Source of the DNA: Candidatus Sigynarchaeum calidifontis
GTDB lineage: Archaea > Asgardarchaeota > Lokiarchaeia > Sigyniarchaeales > Sigyniarchaeaceae
Reading direction: 5' to 3'
Assembly: GCA_030587475.2 (NCBI GenBank)
Contig: JAUQYZ020000054.1
Span: 1-11,829, forward strand
Length of the DNA: 11,829 nt
Shown: positions 2,151 through 11,503 of the stretch, in pieces
Position numbering within the stretch: position 1 is the stretch's first letter
How the letters are laid out: each line of letters starts with the position of its first letter
Made by a program: the position numbers and the translations under genes
Notes under the pieces: generated by a model
Told to the model about the DNA's origin: nothing
Seen by the model: the letters and a program-made list of their open reading frames with translations, nothing else
Database searches by the model: none

Positions 2151-3098
2151 ATGAGCTCGCACGTGAACAACGAGAAAAGGATGGTGATGCGCGTGTTCAT
2201 TTCGATACACGCGGCTTGCATGATTCTCTATCTCGTTACCCTCCTTTACAGCGCGCTGGGCACCCATCCACCCGCGCTCGTTTTGCGGGCCTACCGGTGG
2301 TACACCGAGCCCGTGTTCCCGACGGAACTGGTCGAAGGAACCGCGAACGCGGTGTTTTTCGTCGCTGCTACGATGATATCGTTCAAGGCAAGGAGAAAGC
2401 ACGTGGAAAATAAGAAGATAGCACCGCTCCTCCTGTCGATGACTTTTTTTTCATGGGCAGTCGCGATCGGGTTCCAATTATTCGGTTCGATATTCACGTG
2501 CGAGATCGCGGATGCAACATCCCAGGTATTAGAAACGGCTCTGAAATTTGCCCCGTTTCTCTTTCTTTCGGTAGGTGTTCTCTTCGTCGTTCTTTTCGTC
2601 ATTGAAATTTTCGAGGGCGGCGTTTTCGTGGGAAAAAACAGGGCCAAGATCGGTTTTTTCTCGGTGATCAACATCGTTTTGATCTGCATGCTCGGCTTGA
2701 TCGTGCTTGGCCGCATGTTCGTCCCGATATCGAGCGAGATGGCGAGCTCGATTGCGCCGGTACTCCTCATCGCGGCCGTGGGATTAGGTGGCATTGGTTT
2801 TCTCGCATCGTCCATCATCCAGGTAAAATCGAGCGTTTCCTTGCTGAAAAAGACCCGAGAACCAGCGACACGAAGAGGTATCATGCTCATCGGCATCGCC
2901 GGGTTGATATTGATCGGCTGGTTCGCATCGGAATTGACCGAAGCTATACTCTGGATGGTTTACCCCGACACCGCCAACCGATGCTTCGCGATCGACGTTT
3001 TCATGATTACCAGTTCCGTATTACTTGTTCTCGGTGGCATTCTCGTGTATTCCGGATACATATATCCCGCGATGCGGACGAGGGACAAGAACAATTAA
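2151..3098 (+). CDS. Polytopic membrane protein (315 aa): an N-terminal helix plus a 7TM-like core
   Basis: About 8 hydrophobic segments; basic loops (KARRKHVENKK, KKTREPATRRG) and a C-terminal YSGYIYP. Layout resembles 470..1276. Confidence 0.8.
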   Translation: MSSHVNNEKRMVMRVFISIHAACMILYLVTLLYSALGTHPPALVLRAYRWYTEPVFPTELVEGTANAVFFVAATMISFKARRKHVENKKIAPLLLSMTFFSWAVAIGFQLFGSIFTCEIADATSQVLETALKFAPFLFLSVGVLFVVLFVIEIFEGGVFVGKNRAKIGFFSVINIVLICMLGLIVLGRMFVPISSEMASSIAPVLLIAAVGLGGIGFLASSIIQVKSSVSLLKKTREPATRRGIMLIGIAGLILIGWFASELTEAILWMVYPDTANRCFAIDVFMITSSVLLVLGGILVYSGYIYPAMRTRDKNN

Positions 3099-3099
3099 C

Positions 3100-3226
3100 G
3101 TGTCCATCCCTGTCCTCATCGAGATCGTTGGAAATCAAGCCACGACAAAGAAGAAGGCTGGCAATAACCGTGCTAATGAGGATCGATACCTTTCTTGGCT
3201 TCTGTTTTTTTGGATGAGGCGTTCAT
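3100..3226 (-). pseudogene. Possible 5' stump of a secreted/membrane protein gene (signal-peptide-like)
   Basis: On the minus strand: TATA-like TTTTTTATTT (3290-3281), GAGGAG (3241-3236), ATG 3226. Removing one A from the A7 run (plus-strand T7 at 3205-3211) gives MNASSKKQKPRKVSILISTVIASLLL, a basic n-region plus hydrophobic h-region. Confidence 0.3.
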
Positions 3227-3395
3227 TAACGAGATCTCCTCTTTTGGACTAACTATTTCCCATTATTCGGCATGATTATCAAATAAAAAAGTTTCTCGCT
3301 CGGGCGATGAAACCTACATGCCTCCCTCAGCATGTTCGAGCCGCAAAGCGCACAAATCTCGTGGGCTTGTAACAGGAGACGACGAGCCCATCATG

Positions 3396-3530
3396 CCCGT
3401 TCGACATCGACAACGTAACCAACTGCGAGTTCGCAAACTGGAGATCAATGCCGAGCGCATGGCGAAGCACCCGTTCGACATCACGAGGCAACCAACTGCG
3501 ATGGAGGCCAAAATCCGCCCCGCAGCGACA
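3396..3530 (+). repeat. Degenerate tandem duplication, period 74 bp
   Basis: CCCGTTCGACATC at 3396-3408 and 3470-3482; AACCAACTGCGA at 3417-3428 and 3490-3501. Weaker similarity continues downstream (TGGAG..CAA..CCG...GCGA). Confidence 0.8.
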
Positions 3531-3542
3531 CGTGGTGAACGA

Positions 3543-3556
3543 ATAAATCCTTAATA
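3543..3556 (+). promoter_or_regulatory. Putative BRE/TATA promoter (ATAAATCCTTAATA)
   Basis: AT-rich element with TTAATA at 3551-3556, about 22-27 nt upstream of ATG 3578. Confidence 0.4.
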
Positions 3557-3648
3557 CACCAGACTTGAAAGGATACCATGGCAGGAAAAAATCAAGCCGT
3601 TGATGGTGCATTATCACGGGAAAAAAAACGATCGCCTTACCCTTCGTC

Positions 3649-4704
3649 TTGATGTTCGCCTTGCTCGCTATCGACACCTTGAATCTATTCCAACATGCCA
3701 GTGCCCAGAGCCCGGGCCAGGAAAAGGTCCCGACGCCGAACATCATGCAAATCCACCACTACAACAACGATGCCGGGAACGAGTTCCAGCACGAGTATTG
3801 GTCACTCACGATGCGATGTGGAGACACGCTGTTGAACTTGATCGCTGACAATGCGACCCGAAAGTCGGAAGCTCGCGTGTCGGTCACCTACCAGCAGAAC
3901 ACGCAATATTTCGTCGGGGGCATCAACTACATCGCGAGCCTCCAGATCGTGGACATTGCATTCGTGATCGGGAACCAGACGGTCGCCACGAACTTGACAA
4001 ACTGCGCCGGGTTCGTGTTAACGTACACGCCGGTTACATACAACGGCCCGGTGCCGGGGTTTGATTGCAACATCACGTTCGACCACGTCCAGGTCTATCC
4101 TGGCACCGGTCGCGATTCGACGTTCGACCTGTCGGTGATCCACCACGTCAACGTGGACTGGACGCGATCGACCATCATCACGGAGGCACTTTTCAATTTC
4201 ACGAACACGCGCTTGTACGGGTCCAACGGCAGCGAGTTTGCCCCGGCCACCCCCTTTTGCACGGAAATCCATTATGGCATGTCATTGAACGATCAAACCC
4301 ACGACATCGGGATTGCCCCCTCGGGGCACACCGATACCCGCTTGGAATACAACATCACGCGCGAGAACGGCGCTCCATTGAACGTGGCGAGATTGAACAT
4401 GAACAACAACTTTACCGTGCGCAACGCCAGCGGGAGCTTCGGCCAGATCGGGTATTCATCGATGGCAGTGGGGCCGCAATCGGCGACCGCGACGCACGGC
4501 TTTCCGGGGCTACAGTACAAGAACGTCGCCTCGATCAAGAGCGACCCGGATCTCCAGGTCACCTACGACCGGATCGGCGTGCCGCTGGATCCCCTCGCCA
4601 TTGCCTTGATTATCTTGGCAGCCGGCGCCGCTGCAGCGACATGCGTGATTCTCGTTACAAGGTGGAGAAAGATGAGGGCAAGAACAAGGTCGATCACTCG
4701 ATAA
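3649..4704 (+). CDS. Secreted cell-surface glycoprotein with C-terminal membrane anchor; the true start is probably upstream (3578 or 3603), across an A8 frameshift
   Basis: Signal peptide ending ASA|Q; Asn/Thr-rich beta-type ectodomain with 9 N-x-S/T sequons (NAT, NQT, NLT, NIT, NFT, NGS, NIT, NFT, NAS); C-terminal TM helix (PLAIALIILAAGAAAATCVILV) followed by a basic stop-transfer tail (RWRKMRAR). Confidence 0.8.
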   Translation: MMFALLAIDTLNLFQHASAQSPGQEKVPTPNIMQIHHYNNDAGNEFQHEYWSLTMRCGDTLLNLIADNATRKSEARVSVTYQQNTQYFVGGINYIASLQIVDIAFVIGNQTVATNLTNCAGFVLTYTPVTYNGPVPGFDCNITFDHVQVYPGTGRDSTFDLSVIHHVNVDWTRSTIITEALFNFTNTRLYGSNGSEFAPATPFCTEIHYGMSLNDQTHDIGIAPSGHTDTRLEYNITRENGAPLNVARLNMNNNFTVRNASGSFGQIGYSSMAVGPQSATATHGFPGLQYKNVASIKSDPDLQVTYDRIGVPLDPLAIALIILAAGAAAATCVILVTRWRKMRARTRSITR

Positions 4705-4933
4705 TTACTTGTTTTCATCCCTTCTGCGCGCGCACCCGTGAAAACGCTCGTGGGGCATCACGCGCCACGTCCAAGACTCGATCGACGAGCGCCGCGTCGC
4801 ACGTGCTGGTCGACCTGGAAGACCGGCGCATCCCCTATCGCGAAGCCTGGACGGCTCCGCCGGCCGTCATGGCTCCGATAATCGTCGCGATCGCCGGCAC
4901 GTGGTCACGTGCACGTTTTTACGGCAGAATATC

Positions 4934-4940
4934 TATATAA
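4934..4940 (+). promoter_or_regulatory. Putative TATA box (TATATAA)
   Basis: Consensus-like TATA in GC-rich intergenic DNA upstream of the microprotein and DENN-like genes. Confidence 0.4.
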
Positions 4941-5087
4941 GTCGTGACCAACCAGGTACAATTGCTGCCAGTTGGTGGGAAAACGGCAATGGTGTTGGCT
5001 TGGTTGGCTCGCTGCATCGGTAAGGATATAACCGATTTCCTGGGAACCTGCCCTCAGACGAAACCGATATCTCGAAGGGAAAGAAAG

Positions 5088-5234
5088 ATGAGGCTTGTCA
5101 AGCATTCCACGACGGTCTATTGCCCGCGATGCGGCGCGGGGGCGCGCATGACATGGCAAGACGGGAATGACGAGTATTGCATGGCATGCCGGAAAGAATT
5201 CAAGACGGGCAAGGAGATGGCGAGCAAGCGCTGA
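5088..5234 (+). CDS. CPxCG-type zinc-finger microprotein, copy 1 (48 aa, intact)
   Basis: MRLVKHSTTVYCPRCGAGARMTWQDGNDEYCMACRKEFKTGKEMASKR: two CxxC knuckles. Start is fixed by colinear alignment with two paralogs in this window. Confidence 0.8.
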   Translation: MRLVKHSTTVYCPRCGAGARMTWQDGNDEYCMACRKEFKTGKEMASKR

Positions 5235-5400
5235 GCGGTGGCTGGTGGCCGGTGCATGGCAAGAGAACGCGTCGCGTCGCGGTTGAAAAAACGGCGTGAT
5301 CGTGGACGGACGCGTGCCTCGCGATGGCGGGTCAACCCAGGCCCCGATTGCTGCAGTCTCCGAGCTGAGCAAACATCGATAAGCGGTCCTGGTGATGCCG

Positions 5401-6189
5401 ATGGACGACAATGGCCGAAAATCAATCCATGTCCAATGCCCGGCGTGTGGCCTGAAACAGGAAGTGGACGTGCCGGCGGCTCTCATCAAGGAGAACATCA
5501 AGGGCGTTTCTACCATAGCGATACGTGCGCGATGCGGGCATGGCTTCCACATTTACGTCGACAAGAATTTCGCGATCCGTGGCTACCAGCGAAGTGATTA
5601 CGATGTCATGGCAATCGATGTCGAGACGAACCCGGTGCAGAACTACAGCCTGCCCGGCATCGTCAAGATGTTCGGGGAGGAGCCGTTCGCCCTCGCCATG
5701 CGCGCGATCTTGTTGAACCAGAAAGCCATCATCATCGGCAGCGACCAGCAGATTCTCAAGTCGCTTTTCATCAATTTCATCTCGCTCTTCGAGAAAGAAC
5801 TCCAGGACTCCGCGGAAACCATCGAGATCATGTCAAAGGAGGAATTCGAGCACCAGAATCCCCTGCAATACCAGGGCATCCTCGTGATCGACCTCGATTT
5901 CTCGGTCGTGAAGAACAACCCCTTCCAGAACGAGAAGGCAAAAATCGAGAGAGAACTCCTGAAACAATGCTTGAACATCAAGAACGTCGAGAAACAAAAG
6001 GACGAGTTCAAGGAACGCATCTCCAGGATCTTCTTGTACGCCAACGTCATGCTGAATTTCATCTACCAGGGGATGGACAACTTCAAGGACATCAAGAACA
6101 CGATGAAAAAGAAGGACAAGAACATCTCCCAGGACGAGCTCGACCTGGCATGGATGGTCGCGACCTCGCGCTATAAAAGGCTGTTGTAG
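5401..6189 (+). CDS. N-terminal zinc finger (CPAC...CGH) fused to a DENN-core-like domain (262 aa)
   Basis: GGTGA SD at 5391-5395, ATG 5401. CPACG...CGHGFHIYVDKNFAIRGYQ zinc module, then FGEEPFALAMRAILLNQKAIIIGSDQQILKSLFINFISLF and LVIDLD, which resemble cDENN patterns by eye. The CDS is solid; the domain call is inference. Confidence 0.75.
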   Translation: MDDNGRKSIHVQCPACGLKQEVDVPAALIKENIKGVSTIAIRARCGHGFHIYVDKNFAIRGYQRSDYDVMAIDVETNPVQNYSLPGIVKMFGEEPFALAMRAILLNQKAIIIGSDQQILKSLFINFISLFEKELQDSAETIEIMSKEEFEHQNPLQYQGILVIDLDFSVVKNNPFQNEKAKIERELLKQCLNIKNVEKQKDEFKERISRIFLYANVMLNFIYQGMDNFKDIKNTMKKKDKNISQDELDLAWMVATSRYKRLL

Positions 6190-6202
6190 GTGATCAGAAC
6201 CA

Positions 6203-6264
6203 GGGTCGCGCCGTTGCGAGAGTCGTAATTCGTGCGAAAAACGCGGCGCGCCCATAACTTTTTT
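6203..6264 (+). terminator. Stem-loop plus oligo-T, terminator-like
   Basis: GGG(T)CGCGCCG (6203-6213) pairs with CGGCGCGCCC (6244-6253); T6 at 6259-6264; starts 14 nt after stop 6189. Confidence 0.45.
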
Positions 6265-6438
6265 AACACGTTTTTGTAAGGGAGGAAGAGAAGTGGACAC
6301 GGATCGGGTATTAACGATCGAATAGCGGATCTCGGTGACCCACGAGCGCACGATGTCGTACCGGGACGGACACCCCCACGACGTCCGACCGACCTGCTGG
6401 CCAGAATTTCGACCGATAGCGAATAATAACGAGATGTT

Positions 6439-6620
6439 CCAAAAAAAACAAACCACGGGTGGAACACCGGTTTCGGCCAGGGTTCCTTTTTTTATAGCGA
6501 GCCCTCATGGCCGCGCCCCTTGGCTAAGCCGTGAGGCCTGTTGTCGCTACATCGCCCTCCCCTCTCCCCTCAAAGAACCGGGTGTACCGCTTCTTGGGAA
6601 ATTTTATTTGTTTTTCCTGG
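6439..6620. other. Nested inverted-repeat element (candidate structured RNA or MITE-like remnant)
   Basis: Four nested arm pairs: 6439-6452/6607-6620 (12/14), 6459-6474/6575-6590 (imperfect), 6495-6500/6544-6549 (6/6), 6503-6511/6528-6536 (9 bp with one GU). Confidence 0.4.
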
Positions 6621-6978
6621 CGTGCTCGTGTTCTACCCGCTCTACCCTTTTCAAGCAAATTCGCTTGCAATGGATGACGCTCACGCCCGCGATGGCATTG
6701 GTGATTCATCGCACAGATCTCGCGCCAAGCCAGGCGCCAATTTGGCCCGTAATATGGGCATTCACGCTCGAGGCCCACGTTCGCGTCGATGCCGGCGCCA
6801 GCAGCGCGGCACAGCCCTATCCCGGCTCGTGTCATGTTGCTGCCCATGAAGATCCACGCTGGTCGAGAGGCTTTGATCGGGATCGATCGCGTGGTAACAT
6901 CAAATGCTGCAAAAGCGATCCGGTGACATTGCCATGGTTACCAACCCGGCCAAGCCGGAGCCATGCAGGTGACGAACC

Positions 6979-7119
6979 ACGCGATATACACGTCATTCAA
7001 AGATCGTTCGCTGCCCCTGGTGCCACGTGGGGTCGACGATAACGCGCCAGGACGAGGGCGGCGAGTATTGCATCTCGTGCAAGCGGGACTTGAAGACCGG
7101 GAAGCCGATGGCGCGGTGA
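6979..7119 (+). CDS. Zinc-finger microprotein, copy 2 (46 aa), with ACG at the start position
   Basis: (ACG)RYTRHSKIVRCPWCHVGSTITRQDEGGEYCISCKRDLKTGKPMAR* aligns to copy 1 without gaps. GGTGA SD at 6968-6972; the in-frame TGA at 6970-6972 rules out an upstream start. Absent from the ORF track. Confidence 0.7.
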   Translation, partial: TRYTRHSKIVRCPWCHVGSTITRQDEGGEYCISCKRDLKTGKPMAR

Positions 7120-7143
7120 CGGGTCGCGGCCGGCGGATGTGCA

Positions 7144-7167
7144 ACGCCAGCCGGTTATGGCTGGCGT
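7144..7167 (+). terminator. Perfect 9-bp hairpin downstream of microprotein copy 2
   Basis: ACGCCAGCC-ggttat-GGCTGGCGT. No T-tract follows, so a terminator role is uncertain. Confidence 0.35.
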
Positions 7168-7180
7168 GGTCAGCCAGGCG

Positions 7181-7384
7181 GTGATGGATGTCATGATGCC
7201 GGGCATCGACGGGATCGAGGCGATCAAGCGCATCAAGGGAATGAAACCTGGCGTCAAGGTCATCCTCATGACCGCGCATGCTTCCAGCGCCACGGATGTC
7301 GCGGCCAATGAGGAAGGGGCGGCGGCCATGCTCTACAAGCCGGTCGACCTGGATCGGATAGCGGCATTGCTGAGGACGGGGTGA
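7181..7384 (+). pseudogene. N-terminally truncated CheY-like receiver domain
   Basis: VMDVMMPGIDGIEAIKRIK...VILMTAH...MLYKPVDLDRI keeps the phospho-Asp, Thr and KP but lacks the beta1 acidic pair and alpha1-beta2-alpha2. Confidence 0.75.
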
Positions 7385-7387
7385 TGG

Positions 7388-7547
7388 ATGATCATCGCCA
7401 AGCATCGCAGTACCATCTTTTGCCCCCGGTGTGGTGCCAACGCGCATGACGTGCCTCGACGGGACAGGCGAGTACTGCATGGCTTGTCGTGGCAATTCCA
7501 TGACCGGAAAAGAAATGCCGGAGCGACCGGCGAGTGGCAAGCAATAA
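7388..7547 (+). pseudogene. Zinc-finger microprotein, copy 3, frameshifted
   Basis: MIIAKHRSTIFCPRCGANA, then a 2-nt loss at about 7445 (GCG C ATG versus GCG CGC ATG in copy 1), then MTCLDGTGEYCMACRGNSMTGKEMPERPASGKQ* at 7446-7547. GGTGA at 7380-7384. Confidence 0.8.
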
Positions 7548-7676
7548 TCAATAGCTGCCAGAATGTACGATGGTGCACGGACCGGGCAGGCCAGTCCCAA
7601 TCGTTTCAAGGTGTCTGGATGACGAGTTGTGGTACCGACCGACCTGGAGGTTGGATGGAAAAATGGTGACGCGACC

Positions 7677-8636
7677 ATGAACAAGTACGCCTTGAAGGGC
7701 GTGCTGCTCGATGCGAATCCCCCGGCCAGGGTAACGCCGTTGAAAGGCCAAGTCTTCAGGGCTATATCCTTCCCGGGATTCGGTACATCCATGTATGACC
7801 GGATCGGCATTGATTTCGGCCTCGGCATCATGGAATTGCCGCGCCGCAATCCACCAGCGATCGTGAAGCTCCAGGTCTGGAACGTGAACGAGCAAAGGAA
7901 CGTCATGCTCGACTGGCGCCATTTTCTCAAGGGAAGCATGTTCGGCATCATCACGGCGAACCAAACGGGGAGTGGCGACCTCGCCAGGCTCGAAGCGATG
8001 CTCGGGGACTGCATCGATGCCTGCCCGGGCATGAACATCGGCATCGTCATGCAGCAAGGTGACGGCGAAACGACGTGGCCGGCGGGGATGGCGGCTATCG
8101 AATCGTGCCAGGCCATCATCGGGAGGAAATTCAACGTGTTCGCGACGATCGACGAGGATCTCGATACCATGGTACTAAAGCTCGTGGAACAGGTCCTTGA
8201 CGGTGCACGCGCCATTCATGTGCTATCCATCCGGGATACTGCTGACCTGGCGCACGTCCCTTCCATCCAGGACCCGTCCTTCAACTACCACGCCCCCGTG
8301 TCGAATAACTTGCTCCGGTTCCTGGAGCAGCAAGAGATCCGCATCGATGGTGGCCACGCGATACTGGAAACCAAGGATCACGTCTGCCGCATCGACCTGG
8401 CAAATGCGTCGCTGCACGTGGCTCCCAAGCAGTGCGCCTCGTGTAACAGCGCCTTCACGAGGGTATGCGTGGTGCTCGACTCGGAGATCAAGCGCGGCTA
8501 TTCCTCGGAAAGCCTGGGCTTCACCACGCCCGATCTCTTCGTCTTGTCCATGATATTCGCCATCCAGAACGGCGAGCTGCCCCCGTCCGTGTCGAGACAG
8601 TTTCCGAGGGTTAAATCGTTCACGCGACAGCGGTAG
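7677..8636 (+). CDS. Rab-like small-GTPase-fold protein with degenerate G-boxes plus a C-terminal Cys-containing domain (319 aa)
   Basis: GGTGA SD at 7665-7669, ATG 7677. YALKGVLL ~ beta1; IGIDF ~ RabF1 IGVDF; KLQVW ~ RabF2 KLQIW; FLKGSMFGII ~ YYRGAxG; IGIVMQQGD ~ LVGNKxD. C-terminal CASC...C segment. Confidence 0.75.
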   Translation: MNKYALKGVLLDANPPARVTPLKGQVFRAISFPGFGTSMYDRIGIDFGLGIMELPRRNPPAIVKLQVWNVNEQRNVMLDWRHFLKGSMFGIITANQTGSGDLARLEAMLGDCIDACPGMNIGIVMQQGDGETTWPAGMAAIESCQAIIGRKFNVFATIDEDLDTMVLKLVEQVLDGARAIHVLSIRDTADLAHVPSIQDPSFNYHAPVSNNLLRFLEQQEIRIDGGHAILETKDHVCRIDLANASLHVAPKQCASCNSAFTRVCVVLDSEIKRGYSSESLGFTTPDLFVLSMIFAIQNGELPPSVSRQFPRVKSFTRQR

Positions 8637-8696
8637 ACAGCATTCACGCGGCGCAGCGTGCTACGCGCATCCGCGGCTCAACGGCAGAATCATCCC

Positions 8697-8739
8697 CCGA
8701 ACACGATGACATTCCAGTAGTCGATGGCCTCGTGTTCGG
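8697..8739. repeat. Perfect 10-bp inverted repeat
   Basis: CCGAACACGA (8697-8706) pairs with TCGTGTTCGG (8730-8739); 23-nt loop; 60 nt after stop 8636. Confidence 0.5.
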
Positions 8740-8834
8740 TTCGATACAAGCGGAGCAAACACTCCACTCAAGCTCCCCGCGCGGTGGCATGGACCCTACG
8801 TTCCGGGATCGTGAATGTATAATCGTATCTCGTC

Positions 8835-8848
8835 GAAACATTTATAAT
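8835..8848 (+). promoter_or_regulatory. Putative BRE/TATA promoter (GAAACATTTATAAT) for the receiver gene
   Basis: Purine-rich BRE-like GAAA followed by TTTATAA at 8841-8847. Confidence 0.5.
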
Positions 8849-9041
8849 CTCATTCGCGACGGATCTCATTGACGACAGAGATGCGGTTCGAACCCGCCTC
8901 GTGTCATGCATTTCCAACCGCATCCAATATCCCTCGTTATTATCGATCATTCATATTCTTGCACGACCCATACCATCGGAAAGCATTGTTTCGATAATAG
9001 AACTCGCACGCTGGACCGGTTTCGGTCACACGGTGCATCGT

Positions 9042-9416
9042 ATGCCAGATCTCCTCATCGTTGACGACGACGTGGATTGCCTCGAGTTCCTCTCTCGCGT
9101 GTTGAGGGCGAGGTTTCCATCACTCTCGATCGATACGGCCCGGGACGGCACCAGTGCCTTGCAAAAAATCGAGAACGCCGAGCCATCGCTCGTGCTCACG
9201 GACTTGCAGATGCCCGGCATCGACGGGCTCGAGCTCAGCGCCCGATTGAAAGCCCGGCCTGGATCGAGCGTTAAAGTGGTGCTCATGACGAGCAAGAATG
9301 CCAACTTGATATCCTTGGGCCATGTCGACAAGATCTTGTACAAGCCATTCTCCCTCGAGGCATTGTACAAGCAAGTGGCCCGGTATAGCAAATTAGAGGG
9401 CAATAACGGAAATTGA
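9042..9416 (+). CDS. Stand-alone CheY-like response regulator receiver (124 aa)
   Basis: LLIVDDD acidic pocket, LVLTDLQMPGIDG phospho-Asp, VVLMTS, LYKPF; no output domain. Start at ATG 9042 within ORF 8901..9416. Confidence 0.92.
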   Translation: MPDLLIVDDDVDCLEFLSRVLRARFPSLSIDTARDGTSALQKIENAEPSLVLTDLQMPGIDGLELSARLKARPGSSVKVVLMTSKNANLISLGHVDKILYKPFSLEALYKQVARYSKLEGNNGN

Positions 9417-9571
9417 ATCCCGATCGAGGCATCTCGATGCAGATCGGTCGAGATCGACGACTTAGAAGTGCCTGCGTGATGGTATCTAAATCACAAAGGT
9501 TAAAGGCCAGCTCCCGTTCGACTTGAAATCGAGAGACCCGATTCGCAAAAGTAACGGATATACACGAGTAC

Positions 9572-11503
9572 ATGAGCGCTGAGAACGAGAAGGGTGATCA
9601 CGTGCCCGATCGGTTGTACCCGATTGAAGAAAGGGAAGTCCAGTGGCGATACCGCGAGCTGTTCGAATCGAGCGTGGACGGAATCGTCTTGGTCGGCATG
9701 GATGGCCGCATCCTCGATGCGAACCGCTCGTACCAGGCCATGCTGGGCTATTCCATGGACGAGCTCCGGTCGATGACCTATCAACAATTGACGCCGGGGC
9801 GATGGCATCCCTTTGAAACATACGTCGTTCAAGGGCAAGTAACCAGTAAAGGATACACGGATGAACACGAGACGGAACACATCAAGAAAGATGGCACGGT
9901 CCTGCCCGTCTCGGTCCGGGCGTGGATCCACAAGGATTGGCAGGGAAATATCGCGGGCACGTGGCGGATCATCAGGCCCATCACGGAGCGAAAGGACTTC
10001 GATGAAACACGATCACGCGTAGAAGCGCGGTACCGCGACACGCTCGATTGCTTGATGGAAGGATGCCAGGTCATCGGAACGGATTGGCGGTACTTGTACC
10101 TCAACAACGCCGCGGTCGTGCATGGCCACCAGTCGAGGGAGGATCTGGTTGGCCACACGATGATGGAACGATATCCCGGCATCGAAAGGACCGAGTTATT
10201 TAAGGCACTCCGCGAATGCATGGAAAACAAGGTCCATCGCCAGCTGGAGAACAAGTTCACCTATCCGGATGGTACCGAGGGCTGGTTCGAGCTCCGGGTG
10301 GAACCGGTTCCCGAGGGGATTTTCATCATGTCGATCGATATCACCGAGCGGAAGAAGGCAGAGATGGAATTGCAGGAACACAGGCAACACTTGGCCCGGC
10401 TCGTCGAGGAGCGAACCAGGGAACTCGATCACCAGTTCCGGACACTGCAAGGGATCCTGGAAAGCTGCAAAGACCCGGTATTTTCGGTCGATTCGAGTCT
10501 TCGCTATACTGCATTCAACAAGAGCCATGCCGCGATGATGAAAGCGCTTCATGATGCGAACATCGAACTCGGCAAGAGCGTTCTCGGATATCTGACCGGT
10601 GAACGGGATCGCGTGAAGGTGAAAGCCACCTTCGACCGCGCGTTGCAAGGCGAGCGGGTGGTCGAGGAATCATGCACGGGCGATGATGGGCAGATGCAGT
10701 CGTGCTTCGAGGTCACGTACAATCCGATCAAGGACGTGGACGGGACAGCGGTCGGCGTGGCGGTGTTCGCGCGGGACATCATGCCCGAAAAACGGCTGAA
10801 GGAAATGCAAGAACGGGTCATCCGGCAAGAAAAACTCGCGCTGGTCGGGAAGCTCGCCGCGAGCGTCAGTCACGAGCTCCGCAATCCGCTCGGGGTGATA
10901 TCGAACGCGATCTACTACCTGGACATGAAAATTCCAAAGACAGACGAGACGATCACCAAGCATTTGAAGCTCGTGAAGGACCAGGCAACAAGAGCGACCA
11001 AGATCATCACCGATCTTCTTGATTTCACCCGGATAAAGCCTGGAGAACCTCGTCTGGTTTGCATCCACGACGTGCTGAACCAGGCCCTGGCGCTGTCAAT
11101 CATCCCGAAGCACGTCGTCGTGAAAACCGATTATGCAAACGACCTGCCGGGCGTCTATTGTGACCCGATGCGAATGCAGCAAGCCTTCATGAACATCATC
11201 ACGAATGCCATCCAGGCAATGGAATCGGGTGGGCAATTGGAAATCACGACGACCAGTAATGATGACATCGTCCAGGTATCGTTCAAGGATTCGGGCGCGG
11301 GAATCCCGAAGGAAAACATGCCACGGCTGTTCGAACCCCTGTTCTCGACCAAGATCACCGGGATCGGCTTGGGGCTCTCGATCGCCAAGGAGATCATCGA
11401 GCAATACCAGGGACGGATACATGTAGAAAGTTCCGAAGGTGCCGGCACCACGGTCGTGATCCAGCTTCCGAAGGGGAGCCAACTCTTGAAAGACGGTCGA
11501 TGA
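9572..11503 (+). CDS. Soluble PAS-PAS-coiled coil-PAS sensor histidine kinase (643 aa)
   Basis: Three PAS/PAC units ending PITERK, DITERK and DIMPEK; LVEERTREL helix; H-box SHELRNPL, N-box NIITNAIQAM, G1 DSGAGI, F-box FEPLFSTK, G2 GIGLGL; no TM segment. Confidence 0.95.
   Translation: MSAENEKGDHVPDRLYPIEEREVQWRYRELFESSVDGIVLVGMDGRILDANRSYQAMLGYSMDELRSMTYQQLTPGRWHPFETYVVQGQVTSKGYTDEHETEHIKKDGTVLPVSVRAWIHKDWQGNIAGTWRIIRPITERKDFDETRSRVEARYRDTLDCLMEGCQVIGTDWRYLYLNNAAVVHGHQSREDLVGHTMMERYPGIERTELFKALRECMENKVHRQLENKFTYPDGTEGWFELRVEPVPEGIFIMSIDITERKKAEMELQEHRQHLARLVEERTRELDHQFRTLQGILESCKDPVFSVDSSLRYTAFNKSHAAMMKALHDANIELGKSVLGYLTGERDRVKVKATFDRALQGERVVEESCTGDDGQMQSCFEVTYNPIKDVDGTAVGVAVFARDIMPEKRLKEMQERVIRQEKLALVGKLAASVSHELRNPLGVISNAIYYLDMKIPKTDETITKHLKLVKDQATRATKIITDLLDFTRIKPGEPRLVCIHDVLNQALALSIIPKHVVVKTDYANDLPGVYCDPMRMQQAFMNIITNAIQAMESGGQLEITTTSNDDIVQVSFKDSGAGIPKENMPRLFEPLFSTKITGIGLGLSIAKEIIEQYQGRIHVESSEGAGTTVVIQLPKGSQLLKDGR

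Follow-up and report, generated by a model that had tools for sequence, protein, structure and literature searches.

A genus-restricted family of zinc-ribbon microproteins in Candidatus Sigynarchaeum, with an intact and two probably inactivated copies next to receiver and DENN-like genes

The described proteins closest to those reported here are the C(P)XCG microproteins of Haloferax volcanii (HVO_2753 and HVO_0758) and Brz of Halobacterium salinarum, archaeal proteins of fewer than 70 residues that carry one zinc module of two cysteine pairs, are often missed by annotation, and are thought to be small regulators or binding partners (PMC6562870, PMC10716476, PMC11241148, PMC2253796). Brz and several of the Haloferax microproteins have regulatory phenotypes (PMC2253796, PMC6562870). 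A second point of reference is provided by the lineage-specific output domains of archaea, which are mostly stand-alone, multi-copy, and genus-restricted, and which also occur in viruses (Galperin et al. 2018, PMC5847659); one of them, TackOD1, spans ~200 residues and contains five CXXC motifs and one HXXC motif, with 11 cysteines (PMC5847659). Small zinc-ribbon proteins are routinely missed or miscalled, and almost nothing is known of them in Asgard archaea. Here, we analyze an 11,829-nt stretch of DNA from Candidatus Sigynarchaeum calidifontis (GenBank assembly GCA_030587475.2, JAUQYZ020000054.1; hereafter, the window), which is the whole of contig C85 of a 4.99-Mb metagenome-assembled genome (89% complete) and holds three copies of a zinc-ribbon microprotein gene:

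5088..5234, plus strand: copy 1, an intact gene for a 48-aa zinc-ribbon microprotein of subtype B and the one working member of the family in the window.
6979..7119, plus strand: copy 2, a subtype-A copy lacking a start codon (ACG for ATG), a probable pseudogene.
7388..7547, plus strand: copy 3, of subtype B, frameshifted by the absence of ~2 nt near 7441-7445, probably a recently inactivated pseudogene.

The explanation that best accounts for the locus overall, and which we consider probable, is that the copies belong to a narrow zinc-ribbon family and that the window carries one reduced and one decaying unit of an ancestral multigene cassette; that the microproteins serve as binding subunits is a more tentative part of it. 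An initial annotation, made from the letters of the window, had proposed the positions and states of all three copies, and these were borne out by translation and by a six-frame search of the genome. Positions 5088-5231 encode an unbroken 48-aa translation, with the stop codon ending at 5234, and copy 1 is 71-89% identical to its relatives P0003, P0004, P0005, and P0007. When used as the query against the six-frame translation of the 4.99-Mb genome, copy 1 retrieved copy 2 (E = 1.1e-10), the two halves of copy 3 (E = 5e-6 and 3.5e-3), and a fourth, intact copy of 46 residues on contig C250 (E = 3.4e-15). The frame of copy 2 is open throughout 6979-7119 (translation TRYTRHSKIVRCPWC...KTGKPMAR) and is preceded by a TGA at 6970-6972; its start position reads ACG, where every relative has ATG, and the earliest listed start codon, a GTG at 7027, falls within the first knuckle. 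The first 17 codons of copy 3 are in frame with the ATG at 7388, the remainder (RMTCLDGTGEYCMAC...) lies in the +1 frame, and the register is regained only by adding 2 nt around 7441-7445. Copies 2 and 3 nevertheless retain all four cysteines and most of the conserved residues.

The faults that the initial annotation had attributed to the open reading frame (ORF) track are all present: ORF 4944-5234 over-extends copy 1, the homology of the relatives beginning at 5086-5088, copy 2 appears only as a 30-aa ORF starting at GTG, and copy 3 is read out of frame as a 93-aa read-through. The description of the family as unannotated is right for copies 2 and 3 and for the subtype-A gene of the related locus L018, which are uncalled, and wrong for copy 1, which is already a 48-aa coding sequence in a public record; its close relatives are named hypothetical protein and come from Candidatus Sigynarchaeum springense or Sigynarchaeota. 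The window is rich in long spurious ORFs on both strands, among which we count the minus-strand ORFs 6938-8215 and 4905-5552 that overlap the copies and match no family. Scans of the window with Rfam models and for tRNAs found nothing.

The proteins of the family are basic, 46-60 residues long, and contain a single C4 zinc ribbon. The three copies align without gaps, as had been claimed, over residues 1-44, and the consensus originally put forward holds for copy 1. An alignment of 13 close sequences has no internal gaps and shows H6, P13, C15, G18, T22, D25, Y30, C31, and C34 to be invariant; C12 is substituted only in L015, a degraded copy. More distant members (CPWC..SSLVF..EYCLAC) can also be aligned convincingly, and the C12-x2-C15 and C31-x2-C34 spacing is invariant across 21 sequences. 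Two subtypes emerge from a nucleotide tree, in which the bootstrap support for their separation is 100%. The 46-residue subtype A (CPWC...MTFQD...KTGKPM) includes the C250 copy and copy 2, and subtype B (CPRC/CPWC...RMTWQD...KTGKEM, followed by a short tail) includes copies 1 and 3. The first knuckle reads CPRCG in subtype B and CPWC[KNG]A in subtype A, and the second reads C[MI][AS]C[KR]. The AlphaFold2 model of copy 1 (predicted local distance difference test score [pLDDT] of 84) has three strands, at residues 2-11, 18-25, and 28-30, and two CxxC knuckles; on this model, the knuckles bracket a short antiparallel beta-sheet, which is the zinc-ribbon fold, and zinc binding is predicted. Net charge is approximately +5 in the 46-48 residues of the copy 1 and C250 sequences. 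A candidate conserved upstream peptide was rejected: the MTIEYVIDG extension of P0006 and P0008 is not coding, and neither its ATG nor its frame is conserved.

In accordance with the novelty claimed for the family, no entry of Pfam, NCBIfam, PHROG, PADLOC, or the PDB matches it above threshold. Copy 1 scores 21.8 bits against Pfam DUF7573 (PF24458; gathering cut-off, 30.2), which 4 of 21 members match below threshold, and copies 1 and 2 score 16.9 and 16.4 bits against Lar_restr_allev (PF14354; cut-off, 28.6; best E = 2e-4), with sub-threshold matches for 7 of 21 members. The score against Zn_ribbon_Brz is 14.9 bits (cut-off, 27.9), and the best NCBIfam score is 16.6 bits (cut-off, 108). The best E-values are 5e-4 in PHROG, for families of unknown function, 2e-3 in PADLOC, and 0.017 in a sequence search of the PDB, and Foldseek comparison of the microprotein model with the PDB gave no hit with E < 1, only generic zinc-ribbon noise. 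TackOD1 (PF18551) was not among the Pfam matches at E ≤ 1. The family is real and matches no curated family model, and so is a new family of a well-known kind.

Clear matches were found in 2 of 400 genomes of the phylum, both from the same genus (Candidatus Sigynarchaeum by public names), and three further matches at E ~1e-4 were rejected as unrelated zinc ribbons. A word-indexed search of 5.8 billion clusters returned 7 proteins, and an exhaustive hidden Markov model search of 1.84 billion representatives returned 21 matches at E ≤ 1e-3; E-values went down to 1e-31 in the genome itself and to 1e-25 among public sequences. The family is therefore narrow, comprising members in one Asgard genus and distant relatives on virus-like contigs.

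Selection was assessed with Nei-Gojobori counts over 44 codons. Pairs of intact copies have ratios of nonsynonymous to synonymous differences per site (pN/pS) of 0.18-0.30 at pS of 0.5-0.66 (p = 3e-5 to 2e-3, synonymous excess), and copy 1 compared with its orthologue in L042 yields 0.10 (p = 3e-6), so that the protein-level selection suggested initially is evident in the intact pairs (pN/pS 0.10-0.30), each with a significant synonymous excess. For copy 2, pN is 0.23-0.28, versus 0.10-0.13 for intact subtype-A pairs, and pN/pS is 0.35-0.55. For copy 3, pN/pS is 0.25-0.32, significantly below 1, and pN is raised less than in copy 2. In the nucleotide tree, the terminal branches of copies 2 and 3 measure 0.49 and 0.41, and those of intact copies 0-0.18; with the degraded, cysteine-less L015 copy of the same-genus genome G001 included, the range for disrupted copies is 0.41-0.74. 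A sister assembly (L017), 99.8% identical to the window with six differences in 2.7 kb, has two of these differences within copy 2, namely a D-to-A change and a 1-nt insertion that creates a new frameshift, and shares the frameshift of copy 3.

Copies 2 and 3 each combine a disabling lesion with constraint relaxed relative to intact relatives and, judged from these sequence comparisons, are probably pseudogenes that became inactive recently. Because constraint is relaxed but not absent, the lesions are likely to be recent, especially the frameshift of copy 3, where a pN/pS still well below 1 indicates a break that is young relative to the divergence of the copy. Of the close members of the family that were seen, about one-third are defective. 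Among public relatives, the full-length P0012 has lost three of the four cysteines, P0024 joins an N-terminal remnant without cysteines to a 116-aa frame that is unrelated, and P0018, P0020, and P0022 are called only from an internal methionine; the defective public relatives suggest frequent decay across the family.

The signalling genes among which the initial annotation had placed the copies are indeed nearby, namely a receiver, a PAS histidine kinase, and a DENN-like protein:

5392..6189, plus strand: a 265-aa protein that combines a DENN-like core with a zinc ribbon at the N terminus and is conserved as the neighbour downstream of subtype B.
7139..7384, plus strand: a truncated receiver (REC) gene, with profile positions 45-110 of 111 left and the strand-1 acidic pocket missing.
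7629..8636, plus strand: a 335-aa protein with no Pfam match, whose homologue lies inverted between the subtype-A and REC genes in locus L020.
9045..11503, plus strand: a receiver and a PAS-HisKA-HATPase histidine kinase identified with Pfam (receiver ORF 8901-9416, with the domain from ~9045; kinase 9572-11503).

The origin of this arrangement is apparent from two related loci. In L018, the uncalled subtype-A gene (ZF-A, 6962-7102) is followed, after a 527-nt spacer, by a gene for a 124-residue stand-alone REC (7630-8004), by a subtype-B gene (ZF-B, 8001-8186) that overlaps the REC stop codon by 4 nt (ATGA), and by a gene for a 267-residue DENN-like protein (8198-9001). L020 has the same order, with ZF-A at 660-800, REC at 2243-2605, ZF-B at 2602-2763, and the DENN-like gene from 2808. 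The ancestral order is thus ZF-A with its own promoter-like element, stand-alone REC, ZF-B with the 4-nt overlap, and the DENN-like protein. Window positions 5392-6189 are 82% identical to L018 8198-9001, the gene that follows ZF-B, and subtype B precedes a DENN-like gene in three lineages. The truncated REC is a partial match to Pfam PF00072 (E = 7e-16) with pN/pS of 0.54-0.64 and, like copy 2, an elevated pN; it shares 63% identity with residues 49-121 of the REC in the L018 cassette, and nothing else in the genome matches that REC better. No full-length cassette REC was found in the genome assembly, and the intact receiver of the window (ORF 8901-9416) is only 35% identical to the cassette REC.

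Copy 1 and the DENN-like gene are what remains of one cassette that has lost its REC, with copy 1 still under strong purifying selection. Homology of copy 1 to the cassette starts exactly at its ATG, no REC is recognizable upstream of it, and only scraps of REC remain upstream of ZF-B in L042; the low pN/pS between these two genes despite the missing receiver shows that ZF-B is selected without its REC. Copy 2, the half receiver, and copy 3 are a second, paralogous cassette in decay. In the window, the genes follow one another as ZF-B, DENN, ZF-A, REC, ZF-B, which is the cassette order circularly permuted; a tandem duplication with subsequent differential loss would be the simplest reading. 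The initial annotation had considered the family to be locally expanding; however, two of the three copies are defective, the adjoining receiver gene lacks its N-terminal half, terminal branches are long, and copy 2 has gained another frameshift in the sister assembly, all of which points to the decay of a duplicated cassette rather than to expansion.

Several observations weigh against the overall explanation. In the same-genus genome G001, neither ZF-B nor REC lies upstream of the DENN-like orthologue (85% identical), and both are likewise missing beside the orthologues of the same-family genomes G002 and G003, so that the pairing of ZF-B with the DENN-like gene is not obligatory. Subtype-A copies on C250, on C172 of G001, and in L019 stand alone and have no neighbours in common, and a weak search found no REC-zinc-ribbon fusion or longer form. 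All selection estimates rest on 44 codons, and the values of pN/pS below 1 in copies 2 and 3 fit residual function and very recent loss alike. Finally, the assembly that shares the copy 3 frameshift may be partly non-independent of that of the window.

The model of the 265-aa protein (AlphaFold2 pLDDT of 85) matches DENND1B, folliculin, and C9orf72/SMCR8 in Foldseek with probability 1.0 and template modeling scores of 0.40-0.45; DENN-like paralogue families in Asgard archaea have already been published (bioRxiv 10.1101/2020.10.19.343400). Its N-terminal ~70 residues are also found in numerous paralogues, which carry varying C-terminal parts and number several in each genome (41 of 41 genomes of the order searched). 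In related genomes, the DENN-like orthologue is followed by an AbrB-like protein of 419-456 aa. In the window, the 790 nt between the DENN-like gene and copy 2 (6190-6978) are without a convincing gene; a 107-aa minus-strand ORF that is called at 6524-6847 in the sister assembly matches no family. The 335-aa gene shares 70% nucleotide identity with L020 984-2006 on the opposite strand (pN/pS 0.44), and a paralogue on contig C59 is 55% identical. A link between this protein and the zinc ribbon was rejected, the paralogues (C59 and C275 of G001) lying on contigs in which the family searches found no zinc-ribbon copy, and the 338-aa ORF that adjoins the G001 copy (L011) bears no relation to the 335-aa protein. 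Compared with the window, which represents the empty site, L017 carries a 1.6-kb insertion (2693-4304) at window positions 8710-8717, flanked by an 8-bp duplication (CATTCCAG) and encoding a 340-aa protein with weak, sub-threshold matches to ISL3 transposase and zinc-ribbon models; it looks like an active insertion-sequence polymorphism.

As to function, we tentatively propose that the microprotein is a small, zinc-stabilized binding subunit, and that subtype B would act with the DENN-like protein and, where one exists, with the receiver. The 4-nt overlap couples the translation of subtype B to that of a REC-only regulator, and the subtype, by analogy with what is thought of the stand-alone output domains of archaeal REC-only regulators, may constitute a detachable accessory or output module. 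The conserved neighbourhood of receiver, zinc ribbon, and DENN-like protein offers, for an Asgard DENN-like protein, a candidate partner that can be tested. A bolder reading, in which subtype B is a detachable subunit coupling a bacterial-type phosphorelay, in the form of a stand-alone receiver, to a eukaryote-type DENN-like GTPase regulator and the family was seeded from, or is shared with, Asgard viruses, appears decidedly improbable to us; if true, it would provide a physical bridge between two-component and small-GTPase signalling in an Asgard archaeon. The general interest of one more zinc-ribbon family is moderate. The family is nonetheless a clean case of genus-restricted microproteins under demonstrable purifying selection, and its working and decaying copies, lying side by side, offer a natural experiment, on a small scale, in how genes arise and are lost.

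It is conceivable, although we do not favor it, that the microproteins are nucleic-acid-binding regulators resembling Brz or other one-domain zinc-finger microproteins; their targets would then be nearby genes, controlled at the level of transcription or translation, and not the DENN-like protein. The charge of approximately +5 on so short a protein is in line with such a role, as are the regulatory phenotypes of Brz and the Haloferax microproteins (PMC2253796, PMC6562870) and a weak, sub-threshold likeness to Zn_ribbon_Brz, TFIIB, and RNA-polymerase ribbons; no match reaches a curated cut-off, however, and zinc ribbons cross-match non-specifically. Subtype A, moreover, has no fixed neighbour and possesses its own conserved promoter-like element, which consists of a TATA-like AATAAATAC followed by ACCATAGAATACGTCATAGACGG, lies ~60-85 nt before the ATG, is not consistently coding, and may represent a promoter plus an operator or a 5' untranslated region signal. 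The element is found within the following stretches:

9731-9880 of L039, minus strand: subtype-A upstream element.
6812-6961 of L018: subtype-A upstream element.
4889-5038 of L019: subtype-A upstream element.
1351-1500 of L013: subtype-A upstream element.
1639-1788 of L011: subtype-A upstream element.

Against regulation of this kind, no target or operator was identified, and subtype B is operon-linked to signalling proteins.

Less likely still is that the family is mobile-element cargo derived from viruses or plasmids, possibly a Lar-like anti-restriction or host-takeover factor, of which the chromosomal copies are transient leftovers. Such an origin would explain the high rate of decay, with about one-third of close members defective. 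It also accords with the contigs of P0016, P0017, and P0019, which, in the three contexts examined, consist of short, overlapping, co-directional ORFs with several DNA methyltransferase genes, a layout that suggests a virus or plasmid, at a host-like G+C content. Further points in its favor are the 7 of 21 members with sub-threshold similarity to Lar_restr_allev and a polymorphic ISL3-like element located 1.2 kb downstream. With at most ~17 bits against a cut-off of 28.6, however, the Lar matches fall well short, scans of IMG/VR with the family alignment and two distant members retrieved no relative, and no virus hallmark gene was seen in the contigs of distant members, their PHROG matches being confined to methyltransferases. 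In addition, the surroundings of the close members are those of an ordinary chromosome, with a conserved cassette, and these members are under long-term purifying selection. Two distant members, L036 1833-1982 and L037 3618-3764, lie in contigs with N6/N4 and C5 DNA methyltransferases and a G+C content of 54-58%; these contigs have no counterpart in IMG/VR and may be uncharacterized Asgard viruses or plasmids. A partner common to them was considered and dismissed, because the large proteins whose genes precede that of the zinc ribbon in L036 and in L037 show no relationship with one another and match no Pfam family.

We regard it as very unlikely that all three copies are functional, copy 2 being initiated at ACG and copy 3 being expressed by programmed +1 frameshifting or appearing broken through an assembly error. 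Both copies do keep their four cysteines, most conserved residues, and a pN/pS below 1 (0.35-0.55 and 0.25-0.32, respectively), but the break in copy 3 (GCC AAC GCG CAT GAC) contains no slippery or homopolymer sequence, and its frameshift recurs in a second assembly, in which copy 2 acquires another. The truncation of the adjacent receiver, the long terminal branches, and the degenerate promoter-like element upstream of copy 2 likewise count against function. That the similarity is chance or reflects non-coding repeats in G+C-rich DNA, with no gene involved, is refuted, despite the abundance of spurious ORFs on both strands, by E-values down to 1e-31 (genome) and 1e-25 (public data), the significant synonymous excess, and the C4 spacing invariant in 21 sequences.

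Among known systems, the family is like Lar (PF14354) in being a short zinc-ribbon protein whose distant members are found beside DNA methyltransferases on element-like contigs, and unlike it in that the matches are all sub-threshold and Lar is bacterial and prophage-borne. The comparison with haloarchaeal CPxCG proteins made in the initial annotation proved to be one of analogy rather than homology. The family falls within the size range of the C(P)XCG class but lacks its motif, CPxCG being found only in the first knuckle of subtype B, and is therefore not a member; it differs from the haloarchaeal microproteins in having no detectable homology to them (the best related Pfam matches, DUF7573 and Zn_ribbon_Brz, being sub-threshold), in belonging to another phylum, and in its setting of a receiver and DENN-like cassette. 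With the output domains HalOD1, NitrOD1-5, and TackOD1, the family shares small size, a very narrow phyletic range, the presence of several copies per genome, and a mostly free-standing state (PMC5847659). These domains are encoded beside REC or fused to it, and the likeness of the family to them is in being encoded beside REC; HalOD1 also occurs in viruses, and TackOD1 is built of CXXC zinc-ribbon motifs (PMC5847659). Unlike TackOD1, with its ~200 residues and 11 cysteines, members of the family have 46-60 residues and four cysteines in two CXXC motifs, and unlike two-component output domains, they yielded no fusion to REC in a weak search. Unlike a simple receiver output, ZF-B stays under selection after the loss of REC, which argues that the microprotein is not simply the output of its receiver.

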